A DNA stretch of 27,817 nucleotides from Polyangiales bacterium (GCA_038231275.1 JBBRLQ010000057.1:1-27817); one strand, 5' to 3'. Counted from the first letter of the stretch, positions 2 to 26,120 are shown. Notes: generated by a model from the sequence alone, not told the origin. Numbers and translations are program-made.

Positions 2-1756
2 ATGCGCGAGCGCATCAACTCCCAGATCAAGGAGGAGATGGGGAAGAACCAGCGCGAGTACGTCCTCCGCCAGCAGCTCAAGGCGATCAAGGAGGAGCTC
101 GGCGAGGACGACGGCGATCAGGGCGATCTCGACGGCCTCGAGGATCGCATTGCGAAGGCAACGCTCCCCACGGAAGCGGAGCAGGTCGCCAAGAAGCAGA
201 TCAAGCGCCTTCGCAACATGCAGGTCGGCTCGGCGGAGTACACCGTCGTCCGCACGTACCTCGACTGGATCTTGGATCTGCCGTGGCACGTCCAGACGCC
301 CGACAACCTCGACATCGCGCAGGTGCGCAAGGTGTTGGACGAGGATCACTACGGCCTCGAAAAGGTGAAGAAGCGCATCCTCGAGTACCTCGCCGTCCGG
401 AAGCTGAAGAAGGACAAGAAGGGACCGATCCTTTGCCTCCTCGGACCGCCCGGCGTCGGCAAGACGTCGCTCGGCCGCAGCATCGCGCGGTCGCTCGGGC
501 GTAAATTCCACCGCATCTCCCTCGGCGGCGTGCACGACGAGGCGGCCATTCGCGGTCACCGGCGCACGTACGTCGGCGCGCTGCCCGGCCAGATCATCCA
601 GGGAATGAAGAAGGCGGCGACGATCAACCCCGTCTTCATGATGGACGAGGTCGACAAGATCGGTCACGACTTCCGCGGCGATCCCGCGGCGGCGCTGCTC
701 GAGGTTCTCGATCCCGAGCAAAACAACACGTTCGCGGATCACTACCTCGAGATCCCGTACGACCTGTCGAACGTCATGTTCGTCGCGACGGCCAACGTCG
801 CCGATCCCATCCCGGCCCCGCTCCGCGACCGCATGGAGATCCTCGAGATCCCCGGCTACACACGGCGCGAGAAGCTCGCGATCGCTCGCCAGCACCTCAT
901 CGTCAAGCAGATCGAGGAGCACGGCATCACCACCGCGATGCTCGACATCACCGACGCCGCCGTCGAGATCATCATCGACAGCTACACCCGTGAAGCCGGC
1001 GTGCGCTCTCTCGAACGTCAGATCGCCAGCGTCATCCGCGGCGTCGCCGTCAAGATCGCCGAGGGCGACCTCACCCCGCGAAAGATCGAGACCGAGGACC
1101 AGCTGCGCGAGTTCCTCGGCGCCGGCCGCTACACGAGCGACGTCGCGGAGCGCACCGAAGAGGCGGGCGTGGCCACTGGCCTCGCGTGGACGAGCGTGGG
1201 CGGCGAGATCCTGTTCATCGAGGCGACGCGCATGTTCGGCGCCGGCAAGATGCAGCTCACCGGCCAGCTCGGCGACGTCATGAAAGAGAGCGCGCAAGCC
1301 GCTCTCAGCTACGTCCGGACGAACGCCGAGAAGTACGGCATTGCGAAGGACTTCCTCGAGAAGAGCGACATCCACATCCACATCCCCGCCGGATCGATGC
1401 CGAAGGACGGTCCGTCCGCCGGCGTCACGATGTTCACCGCGCTCGTCTCGATGCTCACCGGCGTCCGCGTCCGCCACGACGTCGCGATGACCGGGGAAAT
1501 CACGCTGCGCGGGCGCGTGCTGCCGATCGGCGGCCTCAAGGAGAAGGTCCTCGCGGCGCACCGCGCGGGCATCAAGCGCGTCATCGTCCCCGAGCGCAAC
1601 AAACCGGACCTCGACGAGGTGCCGGCCGAGGTCAAAAACGATCTCGAGTTCGTCTTCGTCGCGAAGATGGATCAGGTGCTCGATGCGGCGCTCGAAGAGA
1701 AGCTCGCCCCGAAGCCGGCGGAAGAGAAGAAGGAAGCCGTTCCGCCCACGAACTAA
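2..1756 (+). CDS. lon: ATP-dependent Lon protease (N-terminus outside window)
   Basis: Walker A GPPGVGKT, RGHRRTYVGALPG, Walker B MMDEVDK, catalytic Ser in PKDGPSAG and Lys in GGLKEK. The frame is open at the window edge and the N-domain is missing. Confidence 0.97.
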   Translation: MRERINSQIKEEMGKNQREYVLRQQLKAIKEELGEDDGDQGDLDGLEDRIAKATLPTEAEQVAKKQIKRLRNMQVGSAEYTVVRTYLDWILDLPWHVQTPDNLDIAQVRKVLDEDHYGLEKVKKRILEYLAVRKLKKDKKGPILCLLGPPGVGKTSLGRSIARSLGRKFHRISLGGVHDEAAIRGHRRTYVGALPGQIIQGMKKAATINPVFMMDEVDKIGHDFRGDPAAALLEVLDPEQNNTFADHYLEIPYDLSNVMFVATANVADPIPAPLRDRMEILEIPGYTRREKLAIARQHLIVKQIEEHGITTAMLDITDAAVEIIIDSYTREAGVRSLERQIASVIRGVAVKIAEGDLTPRKIETEDQLREFLGAGRYTSDVAERTEEAGVATGLAWTSVGGEILFIEATRMFGAGKMQLTGQLGDVMKESAQAALSYVRTNAEKYGIAKDFLEKSDIHIHIPAGSMPKDGPSAGVTMFTALVSMLTGVRVRHDVAMTGEITLRGRVLPIGGLKEKVLAAHRAGIKRVIVPERNKPDLDEVPAEVKNDLEFVFVAKMDQVLDAALEEKLAPKPAEEKKEAVPPTN

Positions 1757-19267: not shown

Positions 19268-20611
19268 TCAGCCGTCGGCGAGCAATCGCTCGATCGTGCG
19301 CGTCGTCATCGCGCCGCGCACGACCTCGTCGTCCCGAAGCAGGCGCTTGTGCAGCTCGATGTTGGTCTTGATGCCGCCGACGATGAACTCGTCCAGCGCG
19401 CGGCGCATGCGTAAGATCGCCTCGAATCGCGTCGGCGCGTGGACGATGACCTTCGCGAGGAGCGAATCGTAGTCGGGCGGCACGCGCCACCCGCCGTACA
19501 CGCCGGAGTCGACGCGCACGCCGGTGCCGCCGGGCGGACAATACTCGGTGATGAGGCCCGGCGACGGCGCGAACGTCTTCGGATCCTCGGCGTTCACGCG
19601 GCACTCGATGGCGTGGCCGCGGAAGCTCCAGGGGCGCGTGTCCGGAAGCTCCAGCTTCTCACCGGCGGCGGCGCGGATCTGGAGCGACACGAGATCGAGG
19701 CCGGTCACCATCTCGGTCACGGGGTGCTCGACCTGCACGCGCGTGTTCATCTCCAGGAAGAAGAGCTTGCCGTCCTCGTCCATGATGAACTCGAGGGTGC
19801 CGAGCGTCGTGTAGCCGGTCTCCAAGATGGCGCGGCGGATGACCTCCGCCATCTCCTGGCGGCGCTCCGGCGTCATCGCGGGGCTGGGCGCCTCCTCGAT
19901 GACCTTTTGGTGGCGGCGCTGGAGCGAGCACTCGCGCTCGCCGAGCGTCCATACGCCGCCGTGCTGGTCGGCGAGCACCTGGAACTCGATGTGGCGCGGG
20001 CGCTCGACGTATTTTTCGCAGTAGACGTCGGGGTTCTTGAAGCCCGCGTCGGCCTCGCGCGTCGCGGAGAGGAAGTTGCTCTCGACCTCGGCCTCGGTCC
20101 GCACGATGCGCATGCCGCGCCCGCCGCCGCCGCCCGATGCCTTCAGGATGACGGGGAAGCCGATGCGCGTGGCCTCCGCGCGCGCGTGAGCGGCATCCTT
20201 CAGGACGCCGCTGCCGGGGAGGAGAGGGAGGCCGTATTTTTTCGCGTTCTCGCGGGAGGTGACCTTGTCGCCCCACGCGCGCATCGCTTCGGGCGTCGGG
20301 CCGATGAAGGTGACCCCGCACTTGGCGCAGAGGCGCGCGAACTCGGCGTTCTCGGACAGGAAGCCGTAGCCGGGGTGGACCGCCTCGGCGCCGGTGATCT
20401 CCGCCGCGCTGATGATCGCGGGAATGTGGAGGTAGCTCTTGCTCGCCGCGGCGGGGCCGATGCACACGCTCTCGTCGGCGAAGCGCACGTGGAGCGCGCG
20501 CGTGTCGGCCTCCGAGTGGACGGTGACCGTCTTGATCCCCATCTCGCGGCATGCGCGGAGCACGCGCAGTGCGATCTCTCCGCGGTTGGCGATCAGGATT
20601 TTTTTGAACAT
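19268..20611 (-). CDS. accC: Acetyl-CoA carboxylase biotin carboxylase subunit
   Basis: [55 protein letters not shown]. Confidence 0.97.
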
Positions 20612-20624
20612 CGAAGGTCCGCGC

Positions 20625-21089
20625 TCAGGCTTTTTTGATCCGGAACAGCTTCTGCCCGAACTCGACCGGCTTGCCGGTCTGCGCGAGCACCTCGACGACC
20701 GTGCCGGAGTGCTCGGCCTCGATCTCGTTCATGAGCTTCATCGCTTCGATGATGCAGAGGGTTTGGCCCTGGCGGACGACCGAGCCGACCTCGACGAAGG
20801 ACGGCGCGTCGGGGCTCGGCGAGCGGTAGAAGGTGCCGACGAAGGGGCTCGTGACGTCGACGCTGTCCGGATCGACGACCTCGACGGCAGCTGCGGCCGC
20901 GGGGCGGGGCGCGCCGGCGTTGCCTGCGTTGCCTGCGGCCTGGGCGGCGTGGGGGACGGCATGCTGCAAAACGTGCCCGCGCACGATGCGGATGCGCTCG
21001 CCCTCGTCCTCGTGCTCGAACTCGGCGATCTCCTGCTCGGCGAGGAGCGCGATGAGGGAGCGCAGCTTGTCCAAATCGATGCCGCTCAT
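20625..21089 (-). CDS. accB: Biotin carboxyl carrier protein
   Basis: [13 protein letters not shown] and EAMKLMNEI biotinylation motif; directly upstream of accC. Confidence 0.97.
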
Positions 21090-21157: not shown

Positions 21158-21610
21158 CTAGGCTTTTGGCCGCGCCGCGAGCCACCGAACGAGCCCCTCG
21201 AGCCCGAGGAGGTAGCTGTCGGCGCCGAAGCCGGCCACCTTCGCGACGCACGCGGCGGCGACCTTCGACTCGCGCCGGTACGCCTCGCGCGCCTCGGGGT
21301 TCGAGATGTGGATCTCGACGCACGGAATCTTCGTCGCGGCGAGCGCGTCGAAGATCGCGAGCGACGTGTGCGTGTAGGCCGCGGCGTTGAGGAGCAGGCC
21401 ATCGACCTTGCCCATCGCCGAGCCGATCCAGTCGCAAATCTCCCCCTCGTGGTTCGTCTGGCGCGCGTCGACGGTCGCGCCCAGCTCTTTGCCGCGCGCC
21501 TTCAGCCGCGCGTGGATCTTGGCGAGCGTCTCGGCCCCGTAGACGGCGGGCTCGCGTTTCCCCAGGAGCTGGAGGTTGGGCCCCGAGATGCAGAGGATCT
21601 TGATCGGCAT
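21158..21610 (-). CDS. aroQ: Type II 3-dehydroquinate dehydratase
   Basis: GPNLQLLGKREPAVYG, QTNHEG, AYTHTS, EIHISN; aroQ-accB-accC order. Confidence 0.95.
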   Translation of the reverse strand: MPIKILCISGPNLQLLGKREPAVYGAETLAKIHARLKARGKELGATVDARQTNHEGEICDWIGSAMGKVDGLLLNAAAYTHTSLAIFDALAATKIPCVEIHISNPEAREAYRRESKVAAACVAKVAGFGADSYLLGLEGLVRWLAARPKA

Positions 21611-21631
21611 CGACCGGGAGCCCGAAGGCCT

Positions 21632-21988
21632 TCAGAACTCGGCCATGAGCTTCGGCGCCGCGGTGCGCATCAAGTAGCGCCCCTTGCCGAAGTTGCCGCC
21701 GGGCAGCATCGTGAGCGCGAGGAAGTACGTGTCGCCGAGGAGGCGGATGATCGTCACCAGCTTGTCCGTGTTGATCGCGATCTCCTGCGTGCCGCCCGCC
21801 TCGAGCATCTCCGCGGCCTTGCGGATCGAGCCGATCACCACGCCGAACTCGACCGCGACGTTGTTGATGTCGAACGGGGCCTCCTCCTTGGCGTACGTCT
21901 CCAGGGCGATGCCGCTCGAGTCCATGATGATCCCGGCGAGCGCGCCCTCGGTCTTGTCGACGATCTCGCGAAGGGTTTCTTTGAACAT
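21632..21988 (-). CDS. mglC: Roadblock/LC7 protein, MglC-like
   Basis: EGALA, YFLAL and GNFGKGRYLMRTAAPK match my recollection of Myxococcus MglC, and the position upstream of accBC is consistent. Start set at ATG 21988 (MFKETL). Confidence 0.8.
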   Translation of the reverse strand: MFKETLREIVDKTEGALAGIIMDSSGIALETYAKEEAPFDINNVAVEFGVVIGSIRKAAEMLEAGGTQEIAINTDKLVTIIRLLGDTYFLALTMLPGGNFGKGRYLMRTAAPKLMAEF

Positions 21989-22096
21989 GAGGTTACCCGC
22001 GAGACTAAACGAGGAGGGCCTCCAATGGAACATTCAAAGGTGCGGGCGGTTCTGTCTTGATGGAAGCACCGGGCAGGGTTTAAGTTCCACGCCCCT

Positions 22097-23878
22097 ATGC
22101 GAGCGCGAGCCGGGGATCCGCCCCGCACGATGGCCCAGAAGATCCTTGCCGGAAGGTGCGCTGACCCGCTCCTCGCCGGGGATCTCGTCGAGGTCAAGGT
22201 CGACCAGATCGTCCTTGCCCGCGCTCCCGCGCGCGCGTTCGCCGAAGGACTCGGCGCCGGCCTGCGGAGGACGACCGCGGAGGTCGCCATCGCGTACGAC
22301 GGCGCGTGCGTGACCGGCCCGGGGCATCTCGGCGAGCTGGTGCCGGAGATGGGCGCAGCCGGCATCGCGATCGGCCGGCCCGGCGTCGGCTACCCCGCCC
22401 CCGTCCACCTCGAACGCTACGCCGCGCCTGCGCGCCTCTGCGTGACCGACGAACCGCGCCTCGCCGGGGTCGGCGGCGTCGGCATGCTCACGCTCGTCGT
22501 CGCGCCCGGACAGCTCGGTCAGGCGCTCGCGACGGGCAGCGTCTGGCTAAGGCCTCCGCGCAGCCTCCAGGTCCTCCTCGGCGGAAAGATGCGCCCGTTC
22601 GTCTGCGCGCGCGACGTCGCGCTGGAGCTGATTCGCCGCGGCATCGGCGAGGCGGTGCGCAAGGTCGAGGAGCAGCACCAGGCGCCCGTGGTCCTCGAGT
22701 TCGCGGGTCCCTCCGCTCGGCTCCTGTCCGTGCAAGAGCGCAGCGTCCTTTGCGGCCTCGCGCCTCAGCTCGGCGCCGCGGCGGCGATCTTCGTCGGCGA
22801 CGAGCGCACCGAGGTGTTTCTCCGCGATCAGCGCCGCTCGAAGGCTCACCGCGCGCTCGCCCCCGACAACGGCGCACCGTGCGCCGAGGTGATGAACGTC
22901 GATCTCGCCGCCGTCGATCCGCTCGTCCTCGACGAAACCGGTCAGGTCCGTGCGGTGCGCGATCTCGCCGGCAGGCCGGTCACGCAGGTCGTCCTCGGCG
23001 GCGACGGCGGCGTCACGCTGCGCGATCTGTTCGCGGCGGCCGCGCTGCTCAAATCCAAGCGCGTCCCGGCGGATCTCGATTTCTTGGTGCCGGTGCCGTC
23101 GCGGCAGACGCTGGAGGTCCTCGCCTCGAGCGGCGCGCTCGCCGATCTCATCGCCACCGGCGCGCGCATCGTCGAGCCGGACGCGCGCGTCGTCACCGGG
23201 GAACTCTACCCGCCGCGCGCGGGCGGCCTCAGCCTCCGCACCCACGAGCCGGAGCCGCGTTCGCCGTCGCCGTTCGTCGTGGCCTCGGCGGAGACGCTCG
23301 CGTGGGCGGTGGCCAGCGGAGAGGTGGGGGATCCGCGCTCGTTCAAGCGCCCCGTGCGCGTCACGGTTCCGCGCACGCTCCCGACGGACGACGTGCTCGT
23401 CGTCCGTGGCAAGCCGCAAGATGCGAGCAAGAAGGGGAGCCTCCCTCCTCCGATCGCCGCGGGCACGCCATGGAAGGGGCCTCAGACGCTCGAGATCGTC
23501 GAGGCCGCGGGCGGGCTCGTGCTGAACGGCAAGGCCGTCGCCGTCGTGTGCACGACGCTCGACGAGGTGCGTGAGCTCGCCGTCCGCGCCGCCGACCTCG
23601 CGCCCACCGTGCGAGCGGTCCTCGCGCCGTTCATCCCGAGCGGGCTCGTTGCGGTCTTCAGCGGCCTCGGTATCGCGGCGATCCAGTACGATCCGTCGAC
23701 CGCGAAGGGCATCACGAAGGGCAGCCTCGCGTTGCCCGCCCCGGCGCAGTGGGGAGAAAAATCAGCGACCTCCATCACGCACGGCGGCGTGCGGATCCCG
23801 ATGCGCTGGCTGGCGCTCGGTGCCGAGCGCGCGTGGGCCGGCGCCGGCACCGCGCGCCCGGCGATCCCCAAGCGCTGA
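22097..23878 (+). CDS. Aconitase-superfamily protein (fused catalytic + swivel domains), predicted catalytically inactive
   Basis: TMAQKIL, VKVDQ, RPGVG...VHLER, GGVGML, VCARDVALELIRR, VLEFAGP, QVVLG, VPSRQ and VRAVLA follow the order of aconitase/LeuC-LeuD motifs, but the Fe-S Cys motifs are replaced. Alternative start ATG 22130. Confidence 0.82.
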   Translation: MRARAGDPPRTMAQKILAGRCADPLLAGDLVEVKVDQIVLARAPARAFAEGLGAGLRRTTAEVAIAYDGACVTGPGHLGELVPEMGAAGIAIGRPGVGYPAPVHLERYAAPARLCVTDEPRLAGVGGVGMLTLVVAPGQLGQALATGSVWLRPPRSLQVLLGGKMRPFVCARDVALELIRRGIGEAVRKVEEQHQAPVVLEFAGPSARLLSVQERSVLCGLAPQLGAAAAIFVGDERTEVFLRDQRRSKAHRALAPDNGAPCAEVMNVDLAAVDPLVLDETGQVRAVRDLAGRPVTQVVLGGDGGVTLRDLFAAAALLKSKRVPADLDFLVPVPSRQTLEVLASSGALADLIATGARIVEPDARVVTGELYPPRAGGLSLRTHEPEPRSPSPFVVASAETLAWAVASGEVGDPRSFKRPVRVTVPRTLPTDDVLVVRGKPQDASKKGSLPPPIAAGTPWKGPQTLEIVEAAGGLVLNGKAVAVVCTTLDEVRELAVRAADLAPTVRAVLAPFIPSGLVAVFSGLGIAAIQYDPSTAKGITKGSLALPAPAQWGEKSATSITHGGVRIPMRWLALGAERAWAGAGTARPAIPKR

Positions 23879-23892
23879 CCCGATTTGCGCGC

Positions 23893-24186
23893 TTAGACGT
23901 ACGGGTTCTTGTCCGCGCCGCGAACGCGCGCGCCGGCGTCCGCGATCACGACGTCGTCGCCGTGCACCGTGACCGCGAGCGCACGCGTCTCGCGGACGGC
24001 CTCGTGCGTTCCAAGCATCACGATCGTCCCGCGTCCGTCGACGTCGCGGAGATCGAGGCCGACGAGAAATCCGTTCGCGTCGAAGAGGCCAAGGCCGCCC
24101 GAGCCGGTCGCTCCAGGCGCCCTCACGCGCGCGCTGTCGGTGGACGCGTCGTACGAAAACCCTTCGGCAACCATTTCGCGGAGCAT
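23893..24186 (-). CDS. Small hypothetical protein, DUF2283-like
   Basis: SYDASTDSARVR and FDANGFLVGLDL resemble the YD..aDa.yi / D..G.lvGiei pattern. Fills the gap between two plus-strand genes. Confidence 0.5.
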   Translation of the reverse strand: MLREMVAEGFSYDASTDSARVRAPGATGSGGLGLFDANGFLVGLDLRDVDGRGTIVMLGTHEAVRETRALAVTVHGDDVVIADAGARVRGADKNPYV

Positions 24187-24257
24187 GTCGCCAAAGGTAA
24201 GGCGTGTTTTCGAACTTGGAGTGACGCAAGGCAGAAAAATCGTGGCATTCTACCGTC

Positions 24258-25661
24258 GTGTCGACAAAGGGACGACTGACCCGGCAAGAGCTGGGCTGGC
24301 TGCTGACGCAAGAGGCCGCCAACGCCGCCGATCGATTGCGCTCCGGCGTGCAGGTGCTCCGGACCAACGCGCCGCCGCCCTCCGACGAGGTGCCGGTCCT
24401 CCCCGACATCCCTGTCGAGGCGTCCCTCGACGCACTCGACGACGTGATGAAGATGCTCACGTCGCTGCACGCGAAGCCCTCGAGCGGTCGCGGGCGACGC
24501 GGCCGAATCGACCTCGCGTCGCTGCTCTGGGAGGTCGCCCCCGACGCGCGCGTCGCCATGGAGCCGGGCAGCGGCACCGAGGTGAACGGCGACGAAGGGG
24601 AGCTGCGGCGAATGCTCCACGTGGTGCTCGGTCACGGGACCGGCGCCGGCTCGCACGTCGCGATCAAGCGTGAAGGGGAGGAGGTGCGGGTCTCCGTCAC
24701 CCTCGGCCCCGACAGCTCCGCGATGGCCGACACCGAGCGCGCGTGGCTGCACCGCATGGCCATCCGCTACGGCGGCCGGCACGAGCTCGAAGGCGGCACG
24801 GAGTCGCTCGTCTTCCCAGCCGACGGCGCGTACGAAAAGAAGGAGCGTGAGGCGCTCCAGAAAGAGCTCGACGAGGCGCGCAAGCAGGGTGAGGCCTACG
24901 CGCGCGAGCTCGCGCAGGCGTTCGCCGCCGGCGAGGACACGGCGTCGACCTCGACGTTTCCGCCATCGCCAGGACGCGATCGTTTCCCGATCGTGGCGCA
25001 GCTCGCCGGCGCGATGGCGTCCGAGATGCGGACGCTCCTCTTCCCGATCGTGCGCGATCTGAAGGGCTCGCGCCCCACCGACGAGACGCTGGACGGCGTG
25101 CGTCGCCGCCTGACGCAGGTGCAGGACTTCCTCATCGGCCTCGCGGGCATCGGCGAGCTCGATCCGAACGAGCTGCCGATCGAGGTCGATTTCTGCGACG
25201 TGTCTCGCCACGCGACGCGCGCGCTCGTCCCGCGCGCCGAGCGCGGCGGCATCACCCTCAAGCTCGTCACGCTCCCCGACGCCCCGGACCTCCGCGCCTA
25301 CGGACGCTGCGCGCCGCGCGCCGCGATCGCCCTCATCCGCGAGCTGGTCGCGCAAGCCCTGTCGGCCACGCCCCAAGGAGGCGCCGTCACGGTCACCGTC
25401 ACCGCCGCCGGTCACGGCGCGGGAGAGAACCTCGGCACCCGCGTGACCGTCGACGACGGCGGCGCGCCGCTCCCCGCCACCTCGCGCCGTGCCTTTCTCG
25501 CGCTCGAGCTCGACCCCGGCACCTACGGACGCCCTAGCAGCCTTCCCCTCTATATTTGCAGTGAGATCGCGTCGGCGCAGGGGGCCCTCTTGGAGCTCGC
25601 GGATGGCCCGACCGGTGGCCTCCGAATCACCGTGACGTTCCCCCGGGGCAGCGGCTCTTGA
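24258..25661 (+). CDS. Histidine-kinase-like protein with two degenerate DHp/HATPase modules
   Basis: IDLASLLWEV, GDEGELRRML, YGGRHEL in module 1; VDFCDV, TPQGGAVTVTV, VTVDDGG, GGLRITVTFP in module 2. H, N and G2 boxes are not intact. No TM segment. Confidence 0.75.
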   Translation: MSTKGRLTRQELGWLLTQEAANAADRLRSGVQVLRTNAPPPSDEVPVLPDIPVEASLDALDDVMKMLTSLHAKPSSGRGRRGRIDLASLLWEVAPDARVAMEPGSGTEVNGDEGELRRMLHVVLGHGTGAGSHVAIKREGEEVRVSVTLGPDSSAMADTERAWLHRMAIRYGGRHELEGGTESLVFPADGAYEKKEREALQKELDEARKQGEAYARELAQAFAAGEDTASTSTFPPSPGRDRFPIVAQLAGAMASEMRTLLFPIVRDLKGSRPTDETLDGVRRRLTQVQDFLIGLAGIGELDPNELPIEVDFCDVSRHATRALVPRAERGGITLKLVTLPDAPDLRAYGRCAPRAAIALIRELVAQALSATPQGGAVTVTVTAAGHGAGENLGTRVTVDDGGAPLPATSRRAFLALELDPGTYGRPSSLPLYICSEIASAQGALLELADGPTGGLRITVTFPRGSGS

Positions 25662-25733: not shown

Positions 25734-26120
25734 ATGAGGATTCTCATCGTCGAGGACTCTGACTCCATCCGAAAGATGATCGAGGCGCTGGTCAGCGCGC
25801 GGGGTCACATCGTCAAGGCCGTGTCGAACGGCGCGAAGGGCTTGGAAGAGGCGTTCGACTCCACGCCGGACGTGATCCTCCTCGACCTGAACCTGCCCGG
25901 CTCGTACGACGGCTTTCAGGTCTGCGAGCAGATCCGCGCGAACGCGGTCACGCGCTCCGTCCCGATCCTCATCATCAGCGCGACGAGCGACGACGACGCC
26001 AAGCAGCGCGCCCTCGCCGCCGGCGCCACCGCCTACTACACGAAACCGTTCAGCCCGATGGCGCTGCTCAAAGAGATCGAGTCGATCCGCGTGAAGCAGC
26101 GATCGACGCCCGACGCGTAG
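25734..26120 (+). CDS. Single-domain response regulator (CheY-like receiver)
   Basis: ILIVEDS, phosphoacceptor LLDLNLP, ISA, TKPF. Confidence 0.93.
   Translation: MRILIVEDSDSIRKMIEALVSARGHIVKAVSNGAKGLEEAFDSTPDVILLDLNLPGSYDGFQVCEQIRANAVTRSVPILIISATSDDDAKQRALAAGATAYYTKPFSPMALLKEIESIRVKQRSTPDA

Follow-up and report, generated by a model that had tools for sequence, protein, structure and literature searches.

An aconitase-fold protein predicted to lack the iron-sulfur cluster and kept under purifying selection in polyangiaceous myxobacteria

The stretch of Polyangiales bacterium DNA analyzed here (GCA_038231275.1 JBBRLQ010000057.1:1-27817, 27,817 nucleotides, hereafter called the window) carries a gene at 22097..23878 whose product we call pAcn as a working name. 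pAcn is probably a selected pseudoenzyme descended from a PRK07229-type aconitase, which would hold no cluster and perform no dehydratase chemistry but act by binding, with its former cluster and substrate pocket rebuilt. The aconitase family is the textbook example of Fe-S cluster use in non-redox catalysis, and the iron regulatory proteins IRP1 and IRP2 of animals represent the best-known non-catalytic use of its fold. A full-text literature search found no paper on the pAcn family or on any bacterial pseudo-aconitase. The public labels of pAcn proteins are "aconitate hydratase" and "3-isopropylmalate dehydratase large subunit."

Features of the pAcn gene

In the open reading frame (ORF) listing of the window, the pAcn gene begins with ATG and runs through 593 uninterrupted codons. 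Its GC content at third codon positions (GC3) is 0.892, and that of the neighboring genes is 0.887-0.966. A sequence-only reading of the same DNA had described an uninterrupted 593-codon frame with GC-rich codon usage, which agrees with these values. Locus counts given below as "of 80" refer to 80 loci kept from a search of species-representative genomes, in which 309 of 338 candidate stretches encode a pAcn relative. From this set, 7 loci were dropped for the study of selection, either for a cut 3' end or for a match starting after residue 5, and the remaining 73 loci and the window make up the 74 full-length orthologues in which residues were counted. The features of the gene, all on the + strand, are as follows.

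22097..23878, + strand, pAcn gene for a predicted cluster-less aconitase-fold protein, 593 amino acids plus stop (ORF listing, PF00330, AlphaFold2, VIA-align)
22097..22129, + strand, N-terminal extension MRARAGDPPRT (residues 1-11), preceding the second Met (Met12); kept in 78/80 related loci
22130..23341, + strand, aconitase domains 1-3 (residues about 12-415, by VIA-align), the best conserved part, block conservation 0.64-0.96
22451..22462, + strand, E119-P120-R121-L122 in place of D-S-H-T; Asp or Glu at 119 in 74/74, P120 in 69/74, R121 in 74/74
22823..22852, + strand, basic motif R243-D-Q-R-R-S-K-A-H-R252; majority frequency 0.96 in block 241-260
22997..23011, + strand, G301-G302-D303-G304-G305 in place of G-S-C-T-N, with D303 at the first cluster Cys; G301, G302, D303, and G305 in 74/74
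23174..23194, + strand, E360-P361-D362-A363-R364-V365-V366, with A363 and V366 at the second and third cluster Cys positions
23246..23257, + strand, E384-P385-E386-P387 in place of N-R-N-F; Asp or Glu at 384 in 74/74, E386 in 68/74, P387 in 74/74
23330..23407, + strand, linker between domains 3 and 4, GDPRSFKRPVRVTVPRTLPTDDVLVVR (residues 412-437); majority frequency 0.88-0.92 in blocks 401-440
23477..23875, + strand, shortened swivel (LeuD-like) domain, residues 461-593 (VIA-align to 2pkp); block conservation 0.48-0.68
23564..23572, + strand, E490-V491-R492 in place of S-S-R of GSSRE; E490 in 67/74, V491 in 72/74, R492 in 73/74

The ATG at 22097 is likely the true start of pAcn. Aligned intact relatives begin near pAcn residue 12 (alignment A2), and the mean majority frequency over residues 1-20 is 0.96. 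The gene call P0001 in the protein collection begins at Met12 and has 582 amino acids; because the 11 codons upstream of Met12 are conserved at the protein level in nearly all of the related loci, the public gene calls for pAcn are probably too short.

Loss of the cluster ligands and catalytic residues

Residue equivalences were taken from a HMMER alignment to 4nqy_A and from aligning pAcn with 21 intact relatives in MAFFT (L-INS-i), and the two agree. Where positions are called His147-, Asp165-, Glu262-, or Arg644-type, the numbers are those that we take the positions to have in mitochondrial aconitase. As judged from both alignments, none of the three cluster ligands is left in pAcn, nor are the two catalytic histidines, the catalytic serine, or the Arg/Asn residues for the substrate; the sequence-only reading had proposed such losses for the Fe-S cysteines and the substrate and catalytic motifs. 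No orthologue has a cysteine at any of the three ligand positions. The residues at the second and third of these positions vary: position 363 is Ala in 37 orthologues, Arg in 28, and Gly, His, or Ser in the others, and position 366 is Val in 39, Met in 25, and Ile, Ala, or Leu in the others. The D-H pair is replaced by Gly69-Ala70, and the His147-type histidine is replaced by Ala101. An acidic residue remains at the Asp165-type position, i.e., residue 119, and Glu201 (Glu262-type) is retained in the pAcn family. Positions 388-390, downstream of the former NRNF motif, are variable.

Several motifs had been read by eye in the earlier analysis. The reading of GSSRE as CTTLDE is a misalignment, because the arginine of the motif is retained as Arg492; both serines are replaced by Glu490-Val491. 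The losses of the DSHT, NRNF, and DH motifs hold, but the counterparts given for them (DEPR, HEPE, and DG) are each one residue out of register. LGGDGG (residues 300-305, 22994-23011) and PDARVV (residues 361-366, 23177-23194) had been placed correctly.

Some proteins have Asp as a ligand of an Fe-S cluster, and Asp303 sits at the position of the first cysteine, so pAcn was also considered as an aconitase-type Fe-S enzyme with a cluster held by other residues. The only near-invariant cysteines are Cys170 and Cys262 (73/74 each), and His251 is also at least 97% conserved. However, neither cysteine lies at a ligand position, and both are substituted in P0125, P0126, P0132, and the short forms described below. 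The other cysteines are less widespread (Cys71 in 64 orthologues, Cys115 in 41, Cys485 in 41, Cys219 in 31, and Cys21 in 25). An alternative cysteine cluster had been named beforehand as evidence that would speak against the loss, and none was found. As the catalytic serine, both histidines, and the substrate Arg/Asn residues are lost too, we regard a surviving Fe-S enzyme as very improbable.

Cys170 (22604-22606), His251 (22847-22849), and Cys262 (22880-22882) are a separate observation: each is at least 97% conserved in the close family, where they replace the Ser, Trp, and Tyr of intact relatives. The three residues could form a lineage-specific metal site, but the trio varies in distant and short members.

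Profile matches and predicted structure

Pfam Aconitase (PF00330) is the sole Pfam family that pAcn matches, with 76.8 bits against a cut-off of 28.7, and the matched stretch covers residues 103-277 only. Aconitase_C (PF00694) gave no match in pAcn at E<=1 in the Pfam search. Nineteen NCBIfam models of the aconitase family match pAcn, all far below their curated cut-offs. The top model is TIGR01342 (acon_putative), with 166 bits against a cut-off of 719.15, and NF005558 (PRK07229) gives 163.8 bits against 612. The models of the AcnA/IRP group, whose members have about 890 amino acids, score lower still (TIGR01341, 28.6 vs 945 bits; NF006757, 33 vs 686 bits), and by these model scores pAcn falls outside that group. 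The closest PDB chain by sequence is 4nqy_A, the large subunit of the Methanocaldococcus jannaschii isopropylmalate/citramalate isomerase (E 2.9e-18).

The AlphaFold2 model of pAcn, computed from a 65-sequence alignment, has a mean predicted local distance difference test score (pLDDT) of 92.8 and a predicted template modeling score (pTM) of 0.93, and confidently gives a whole-chain aconitase fold. In a Foldseek search with the model, mitochondrial aconitase ranked at the top (E about 1e-35, query TM-score [TMq] 0.79-0.81). VIA-align superposes model residues 1-593 on residues 22-754 of 1c96 (Z-score = 40.2, root-mean-square deviation [rmsd] = 2.7, 578 residues), and the mitochondrial aconitase structures 1c96, 5acn, and 7acn taken together show the same closed whole-chain fold at 16% identity (Z 40, rmsd 2.7-2.8, 577-579 residues), although pAcn is about 160 residues shorter and lacks cluster ligands and catalytic residues. 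The large subunits of homoaconitase and isopropylmalate isomerase (4kp2_A and 4kp1) match pAcn residues 9/10..415/416 with Z-scores of 41-42 and rmsd values of 2.2-2.3 at 20% identity, and residues 461-593 match LeuD (2pkp; Z 10.4, rmsd 2.7, 121 residues). Because VIA-align matches the whole chain, the large subunits, and LeuD, all four domains are present in the closed arrangement, and pAcn is, according to the model, a full four-domain aconitase fold. The LeuC/LeuD and HacA/HacB proteins (4kp1, 4kp2, and 2pkp) are two-subunit systems, whereas pAcn is a single chain without cluster or catalytic residues. In the ESM Atlas, the only clusters returned for pAcn were those of its own kind, at 0.96 and 0.95 (Myxococcota, automatically named isopropylmalate dehydratase), and one of the intact type, at 0.89.

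The swivel domain is shortened. About 60 alignment columns are absent ahead of the GSSRE strand, and this domain is the least conserved region of pAcn.

Conservation and purifying selection

The pAcn frame is intact in the window and in all 73 complete loci. Selection was estimated as omega (dN/dS) by the Nei-Gojobori method. Between the window and locus L006, omega is 0.112 (dN 0.062, dS 0.557), and the neighboring accC gives 0.082 for the same pair. Among four Polyangium loci, the values are 0.043-0.075 for pAcn and 0.061-0.135 for accC, and in 275 pairs from 64 genomes with dS between 0.05 and 0.6 the median is 0.172 (0.043-0.614) for pAcn and 0.188 (0.024-0.542) for accC. The close-pair omega of pAcn (0.04-0.14) is like that of accC, an essential neighboring gene. 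Because GC3 compresses dS, pAcn is more soundly judged against accC than by absolute values, and the omega values of distant pairs are inflated in both genes alike.

Among the 74 orthologues, the majority residue has a mean frequency of 0.76, and 26% of the positions show no variation. Asp118, Arg121, Gly301, Gly302, Asp303, Gly305, Glu360, Pro361, Asp362, Arg364, and Pro387 are invariant (74/74). The signatures D-[DE]-x-R, G-G-D, and E-P-D are kept in members that are only 41-50% identical, and Asp303 in particular is kept in P0123, P0125, P0126, P0127, and P0132, which fall in this range. In total, 108 positions are at least 97% conserved in the pAcn family and differ from the majority residue of the 21 intact relatives; Arg243, Arg246, Lys249, and His251 of the basic motif belong to this class. 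Another 47 conserved positions are common to pAcn and the 21 intact relatives, including His104, Glu201, Arg215, Asp235, and Asp412-Pro413 (DPR motif). The newly constrained stretches of pAcn are MRARAGDPPRT, RDQRRSKAHR (243-252), and the linker GDPRSFKRPVRVTVPRTLPTDDVLVVR.

These data leave scarcely any room for a decaying or neutrally drifting pseudogene. All catalytic motifs are lost and the NCBIfam scores are far under their cut-offs, as might be expected of decay; on the other hand, the frame is intact throughout, the close-pair omega is low, GC3 is 0.89, and more than a quarter of the positions are invariant while mglC, the gene next to pAcn, is conserved at only 47-51% identity between the window and Sorangium. 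The sequence-only reading had held that the gene does not look like a decaying pseudogene, and had named absent or neutrally evolving orthologues as evidence to the contrary. Orthologues are abundant and under purifying selection, and the replacement residues are invariant, in agreement with that view. Pseudogenization was also considered on the basis of apparent in-frame stops in G140, G195, and G280 and a split match in G125, and was rejected: G125 is continuous, the stop in G280 is the natural end of the gene, and G140 and G195, from one genus (g12), encode natural short forms.

Distribution and origin of the family

A word-indexed protein search scored 8000 proteins, of which 1484 matched at E<=1e-3, and the best 120 of the 1484, which are the matches listed, are 66-100% identical to pAcn and 570-642 amino acids long. 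An exhaustive search of representatives returned 1778 proteins at E<=1e-3, 120 of them at E<=1e-30. The 80 kept loci are labeled Polyangiaceae, Labilithrix, Polyangium, Sorangium, Byssovorax, or unresolved myxobacterial metagenome-assembled genomes, and they include Sorangium cellulosum So ce56, whose orthologue lies at around 5,462,258-5,464,141 of NC_010162.1 (5001-6884 of locus L078). Among 301 sampled genomes of the phylum, 43 match pAcn at E<=1e-20. Matches at E<=1e-140 are confined to the window's own GTDB family, where they occur in 18 of the 23 sampled genomes plus the window's genome; outside this family, 24 genomes match, with a best E of 2.1e-64.

In a maximum-likelihood tree of 53 full-length rows (quick search), the 15 family members form one clade, 15/15, with a Shimodaira-Hasegawa-like approximate likelihood ratio test (SH-aLRT) support of 100. 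The stem of the clade is 0.68 changes per column long and sets it apart from intact PRK07229-type proteins. Divergence within the clade is considerable; the window and Sorangium proteins are 60-62% identical, other members are down to 41%, and five members are only 41-50% identical. By sequence comparison, pAcn belongs with the short PRK07229-type branch and not with the AcnA/IRP branch, and its origin from PRK07229/TIGR01342-type enzymes is single in this tree, on a long branch.

The TIGR01342/NF005558 (PRK07229) group of about 640-655 amino acids is the known system nearest to pAcn, as both its top-scoring models and the sister group in the tree. The two share the domain order 1-2-3-linker-4, and pAcn is 24-31% identical to intact or partly degenerate relatives (A2). 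The differences are that pAcn scores under a quarter of the cut-offs (719 and 612); lacks the Cys ligands, S-H, D-H, the Arg and Asn of NRNF, and the catalytic Ser; has lost the swivel alignment columns noted above; and has gained the N-terminal extension. Its isoelectric point (pI) is about 9.4, compared with mostly 5.2-6.8 in PRK07229-type relatives.

The Cys/DSH/NRNF/GSSRE set is also lost, in part or wholly and in varied patterns, in the PRK07229-type metagenome proteins P0171, P0184, P0188, P0203, P0205, P0207, P0215, P0220, P0223, P0226, P0239, P0244, and P0250. Because the quick tree places them here and there between intact enzymes, the loss of catalysis may recur in the PRK07229 branch.

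Besides pAcn, an AcnA-type gene and an intact family member of 665 amino acids are present in the genome of the window (9.28 Mb, 94% complete). The PF00330 search of this genome found these two and pAcn only, with no separate leuC. The motifs of the 665-residue enzyme are intact (GSSRE, DSHT, GGSCTGG, CGAC, and NRNF). Since the genome has both of these genes, there is no catalytic gap for pAcn to fill. The 665-residue gene itself (G000 contig C5, locus L002, 775-2772, + strand) is unusual in that the swivel domain comes first and the catalytic domains follow; it may be the LeuDC-type isomerase of the genome.

Short forms and the question of RNA binding

Some members of the family have no swivel domain: the orthologues in G140 (L101, 1073-2662, - strand) and G195 (L102), and the proteins P0122, P0130, P0136, and P0143 (443-478 amino acids). 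The short orthologue of G140 stops 18 residues past the LPTDD motif of the linker, directly followed by an HATPase_c gene, and, as read from the printed sequences, P0122, P0130, P0136, and P0143 stop 7-38 residues past LPTDD or LPTED. In mitochondrial aconitase, the catalytic Ser and an Arg come from the swivel domain. The comparison of these sequences indicates that the swivel domain is dispensable in the pAcn family, and since it is lost in some lineages, the function would be placed in domains 1-3 and the linker.

The short forms bear on whether pAcn is an IRP-like RNA-binding regulator, in which the cluster-free protein would open the cleft between domains 3 and 4 and bind specific mRNA structures. 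Cluster-free IRP1 and IRP2 are precedents for RNA binding; they show that the aconitase fold can serve non-catalytic regulation, and the pAcn model matches 2b3x (Z 29.6) and 6vcd (Z 19.5), with 3snp also among the fold matches. The pAcn family is consistently basic. In the 74 orthologues, the pI ranges from 8.52 to 9.86 with a median of 9.35, whereas 10 of 13 intact relatives have a pI of <=6.81; the net charge of the window protein is +10. Newly fixed basic motifs (RDQRRSKAHR, KRPVRVTVPR, and LKSKRVP) point in the same direction. The basic pI fits the binding of an acidic partner or of nucleic acid, but by itself it is weak evidence; the sequence-only reading had suggested an RNA-binding or scaffold role, and this consistently high pI is its one hint. 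Moreover, IRP1 and IRP2 belong to the AcnA/IRP branch with about 890-960 amino acids, outside of which pAcn falls (TIGR01341, as given above), grouping with PRK07229-type proteins. In IRP1 the cysteines are kept, and the protein alternates between catalysis and RNA binding, unlike pAcn, which has no Cys ligands at all. The model fits closed aconitase much better than RNA-bound IRP1 (Z 21, rmsd 10.1), although AlphaFold2 may favor the closed form; the short forms lack the domain that makes half of the RNA cleft of IRP1; and no Rfam element occurs anywhere in the window. RNA binding is known in the AcnA/IRP branch, and for pAcn we consider it unlikely, if the foremost of the alternatives. The readings of pAcn as an RNA binder, as a partner of MglC, and as a cation or metal binder overlap one another.

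Gene neighborhood

The genes around pAcn are as follows.

21632..21988 (ORF to 22033), - strand, mglC homologue (Roadblock/LC7), divergent neighbor of pAcn; phmmer E 3.1e-27 to 7ct3
21158-21610, - strand, aroQ; DHquinase_II, E 4.9e-52
20625-21089, - strand, accB; ORF, named from its translation and the label of the sequence-only reading only
19268-20611, - strand, accC; ORF, named on the same two grounds only
24258-25661, + strand, HATPase_c protein of 467 amino acids; HATPase_c C-terminal, E 1.5e-05, 25.9 bits (cut-off 26.4)
25734-26120, + strand, single-domain receiver; Response_reg, E 2.6e-25

pAcn had been described as divergent from an mglC-aroQ-accBC cluster, and both the ORFs of the window and the adjacency of mglC in 77 of the 80 loci agree with that description. 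In a phmmer comparison with Myxococcus xanthus MglC (7ct3_A), residues 16-132 of the mglC product align with residues 2-119, a similarity over the full length, and Pfam Robl_LC7 gives 18.4 bits, under its cut-off of 23. The 133-residue ORF starts 15 codons before the MglC similarity, and related loci align from MFKE. Because the similarity to 7ct3 begins at residue 16, the mglC start is probably Met16 at 21988; with this start, the divergent spacer between mglC and pAcn is about 108 bp.

Among the 80 loci, MglC is found in 77, AroQ in 77, AccB in 72, and AccC in 70. Of the three loci that lack MglC, L065 has 5 kb with no match, and the other two have next to no DNA upstream. In a sample of 201 genomes of the phylum, 93 have an MglC homologue. 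In 16 comparison loci (L085-L100), from other families of the order and class and from two genomes of the same family without pAcn, MglC and AroQ are adjacent in 16/16 and are followed by AccB/AccC in 14/16; no pAcn match lies beside mglC in these 16 loci, and the upstream genes vary. From this comparison, the mglC-aroQ-accB-accC block is older than pAcn. It is odd in its own right that a motility-polarity gene is linked to shikimate and fatty-acid genes well beyond the family of pAcn.

This arrangement raises the possibility that pAcn serves the MglA/MglB/MglC polarity (motility-reversal) module as an adaptor or regulator and is co-regulated with mglC from a shared divergent promoter region. 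Its neighbor is a true MglC homologue, the spacer is short, and the adjacency is kept in all but three loci, two of which are truncated upstream as noted. MglC regulates motility reversals and binds MglB and RomR (PMC4719450). However, the block is older and stands without pAcn in all of the comparison loci, synteny within one family can last by descent alone, and no strong pAcn match is seen in families other than f1 that carry MglC. The adjacency of pAcn and mglC is a lead and not evidence of shared function, and a role of pAcn in the polarity module seems to us rather doubtful. A complex prediction for pAcn and MglC gave a score of 0.00 in two runs made without controls, which counts neither way on binding.

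Downstream of pAcn, no HisKA match was found by Pfam in the 467-residue HATPase_c protein, which may be a degenerate or atypical kinase. The downstream genes were considered as operon partners of pAcn and rejected, as HATPase_c occurs in only 36/80 and the receiver in only 32/80 pAcn loci; the ORFs downstream in S. cellulosum So ce56 (L078) instead give a weak DUF4139 match and a sulfatase. Clustering of the downstream ORFs is blurred by spurious high-GC ORFs. A promoter and terminator scan of 21500-24500 found 0 sites of either kind and is uninformative at about 70% GC; Rfam (gathering scores) and tRNA scans of the whole window gave 0 matches each. Of 7 sequencing runs listed, six contain part of the DNA, one of them possibly being the source sample, and none contains RNA.

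Proposed explanation

We propose that pAcn arose once, on a long branch, from a single-chain aconitase of the PRK07229/TIGR01342 type. It has kept the four-domain fold and would have become unable to hold a [4Fe-4S] cluster or to run dehydration-rehydration, and in the bacterial family of the window its gene is now fixed and under strong selection. The pocket that once took the cluster and the substrate would have been rebuilt with Asp118, Asp/Glu119, Arg121, Asp303, Glu360, Asp362, Arg364, Asp/Glu384, and Glu386, and new basic surface motifs and the N-terminal peptide would have been fixed as well. Domains 1-3 and the linker would then be the binding part of pAcn, whose role would be regulatory, adaptor-like, or sensory instead of catalytic. 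With its catalytic residues lost and purifying selection acting on it, pAcn is a pseudoenzyme in the operational sense, the inactivity itself being deduced from the alignments; that its function is the binding of a partner or ligand is what we infer from these features.

Several points weigh against this explanation. As a set, the 15 positions that were once catalytic do not differ significantly from background in conservation (0.84 vs 0.76; 10% of 10,000 random position sets reach 0.84). Domains 1-3 are highly conserved throughout, as those of an enzyme would be, and between the window and Sorangium pAcn is more conserved (60-62% identity) than aroQ (52-54%) or mglC. The absolute omega values are rough, since dS saturates near 0.55-0.9 through the extreme GC3 (about 0.9), and the tree comes from a quick search only, with 21 rows that deviate in composition. 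That the rebuilt residues line one pocket is suggested by their homology to cluster-site positions, and a charged pocket that never varies might have been put to use in a new reaction. The sequence-only reading had seen a dedicated non-enzymatic aconitase-fold protein, and of this the residue losses uphold the absence of aconitase-type Fe-S dehydratase chemistry. Given the invariance of the rebuilt pocket, pAcn may have a new ligand-binding or even catalytic role.

Such a new function might be that of a cluster-free enzyme or of a sensor of metals or small cations, in which a carboxylate/arginine pocket binds a divalent metal or a cationic substrate. Acidic and arginine residues occupy former cluster and substrate positions in 74/74 orthologues and are kept at 41-50% identity, Glu201 and Arg492 (Arg644-type) are retained, and the constraint on the whole protein is enzyme-like, with an omega similar to that of accC. 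On the other hand, the swivel domain, which closes the site, is lost in some lineages, and the pocket positions are no more conserved than the rest of pAcn. We know of no cluster-free catalytic aconitase-fold protein, and none was found in the literature search. Taken together, a neo-functionalized pAcn of this kind appears improbable to us.

A more specific form of the binding hypothesis concerns the site made up of D118-[DE]119-x-R121, G-G-D303, E360-P-D362-x-R364, and [DE]384-x-E386. With low confidence, we suggest that this rebuilt carboxylate/arginine site binds a cation, such as a metal ion, a polyamine-like metabolite, or a basic peptide; the peptide is possibly the invariant MRARAGDPPRT tail of pAcn itself. 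A sensor of citrate for the adjacent acetyl-CoA carboxylase genes was set aside, as pAcn has lost the Arg/Asn/Ser residues that bind carboxylates and has an acidic pocket.

If the cation site is real, pAcn would be the first bacterial sensor, or enzyme, to use the aconitase fold without a cluster, and its output might feed the neighboring MglC polarity module of polyangiaceous myxobacteria. Under our preferred explanation, that of a selected pseudoenzyme, a full aconitase fold has long been kept in a bacterial lineage without any cluster ligand, with the replacement residues frozen. pAcn would thus be a natural experiment on the stability of the fold without its cluster and on other uses of the cleft between the domains. 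The enzyme labels carried by pAcn proteins inflate metabolic reconstructions of the Polyangiaceae, and the present assignment corrects this annotation.

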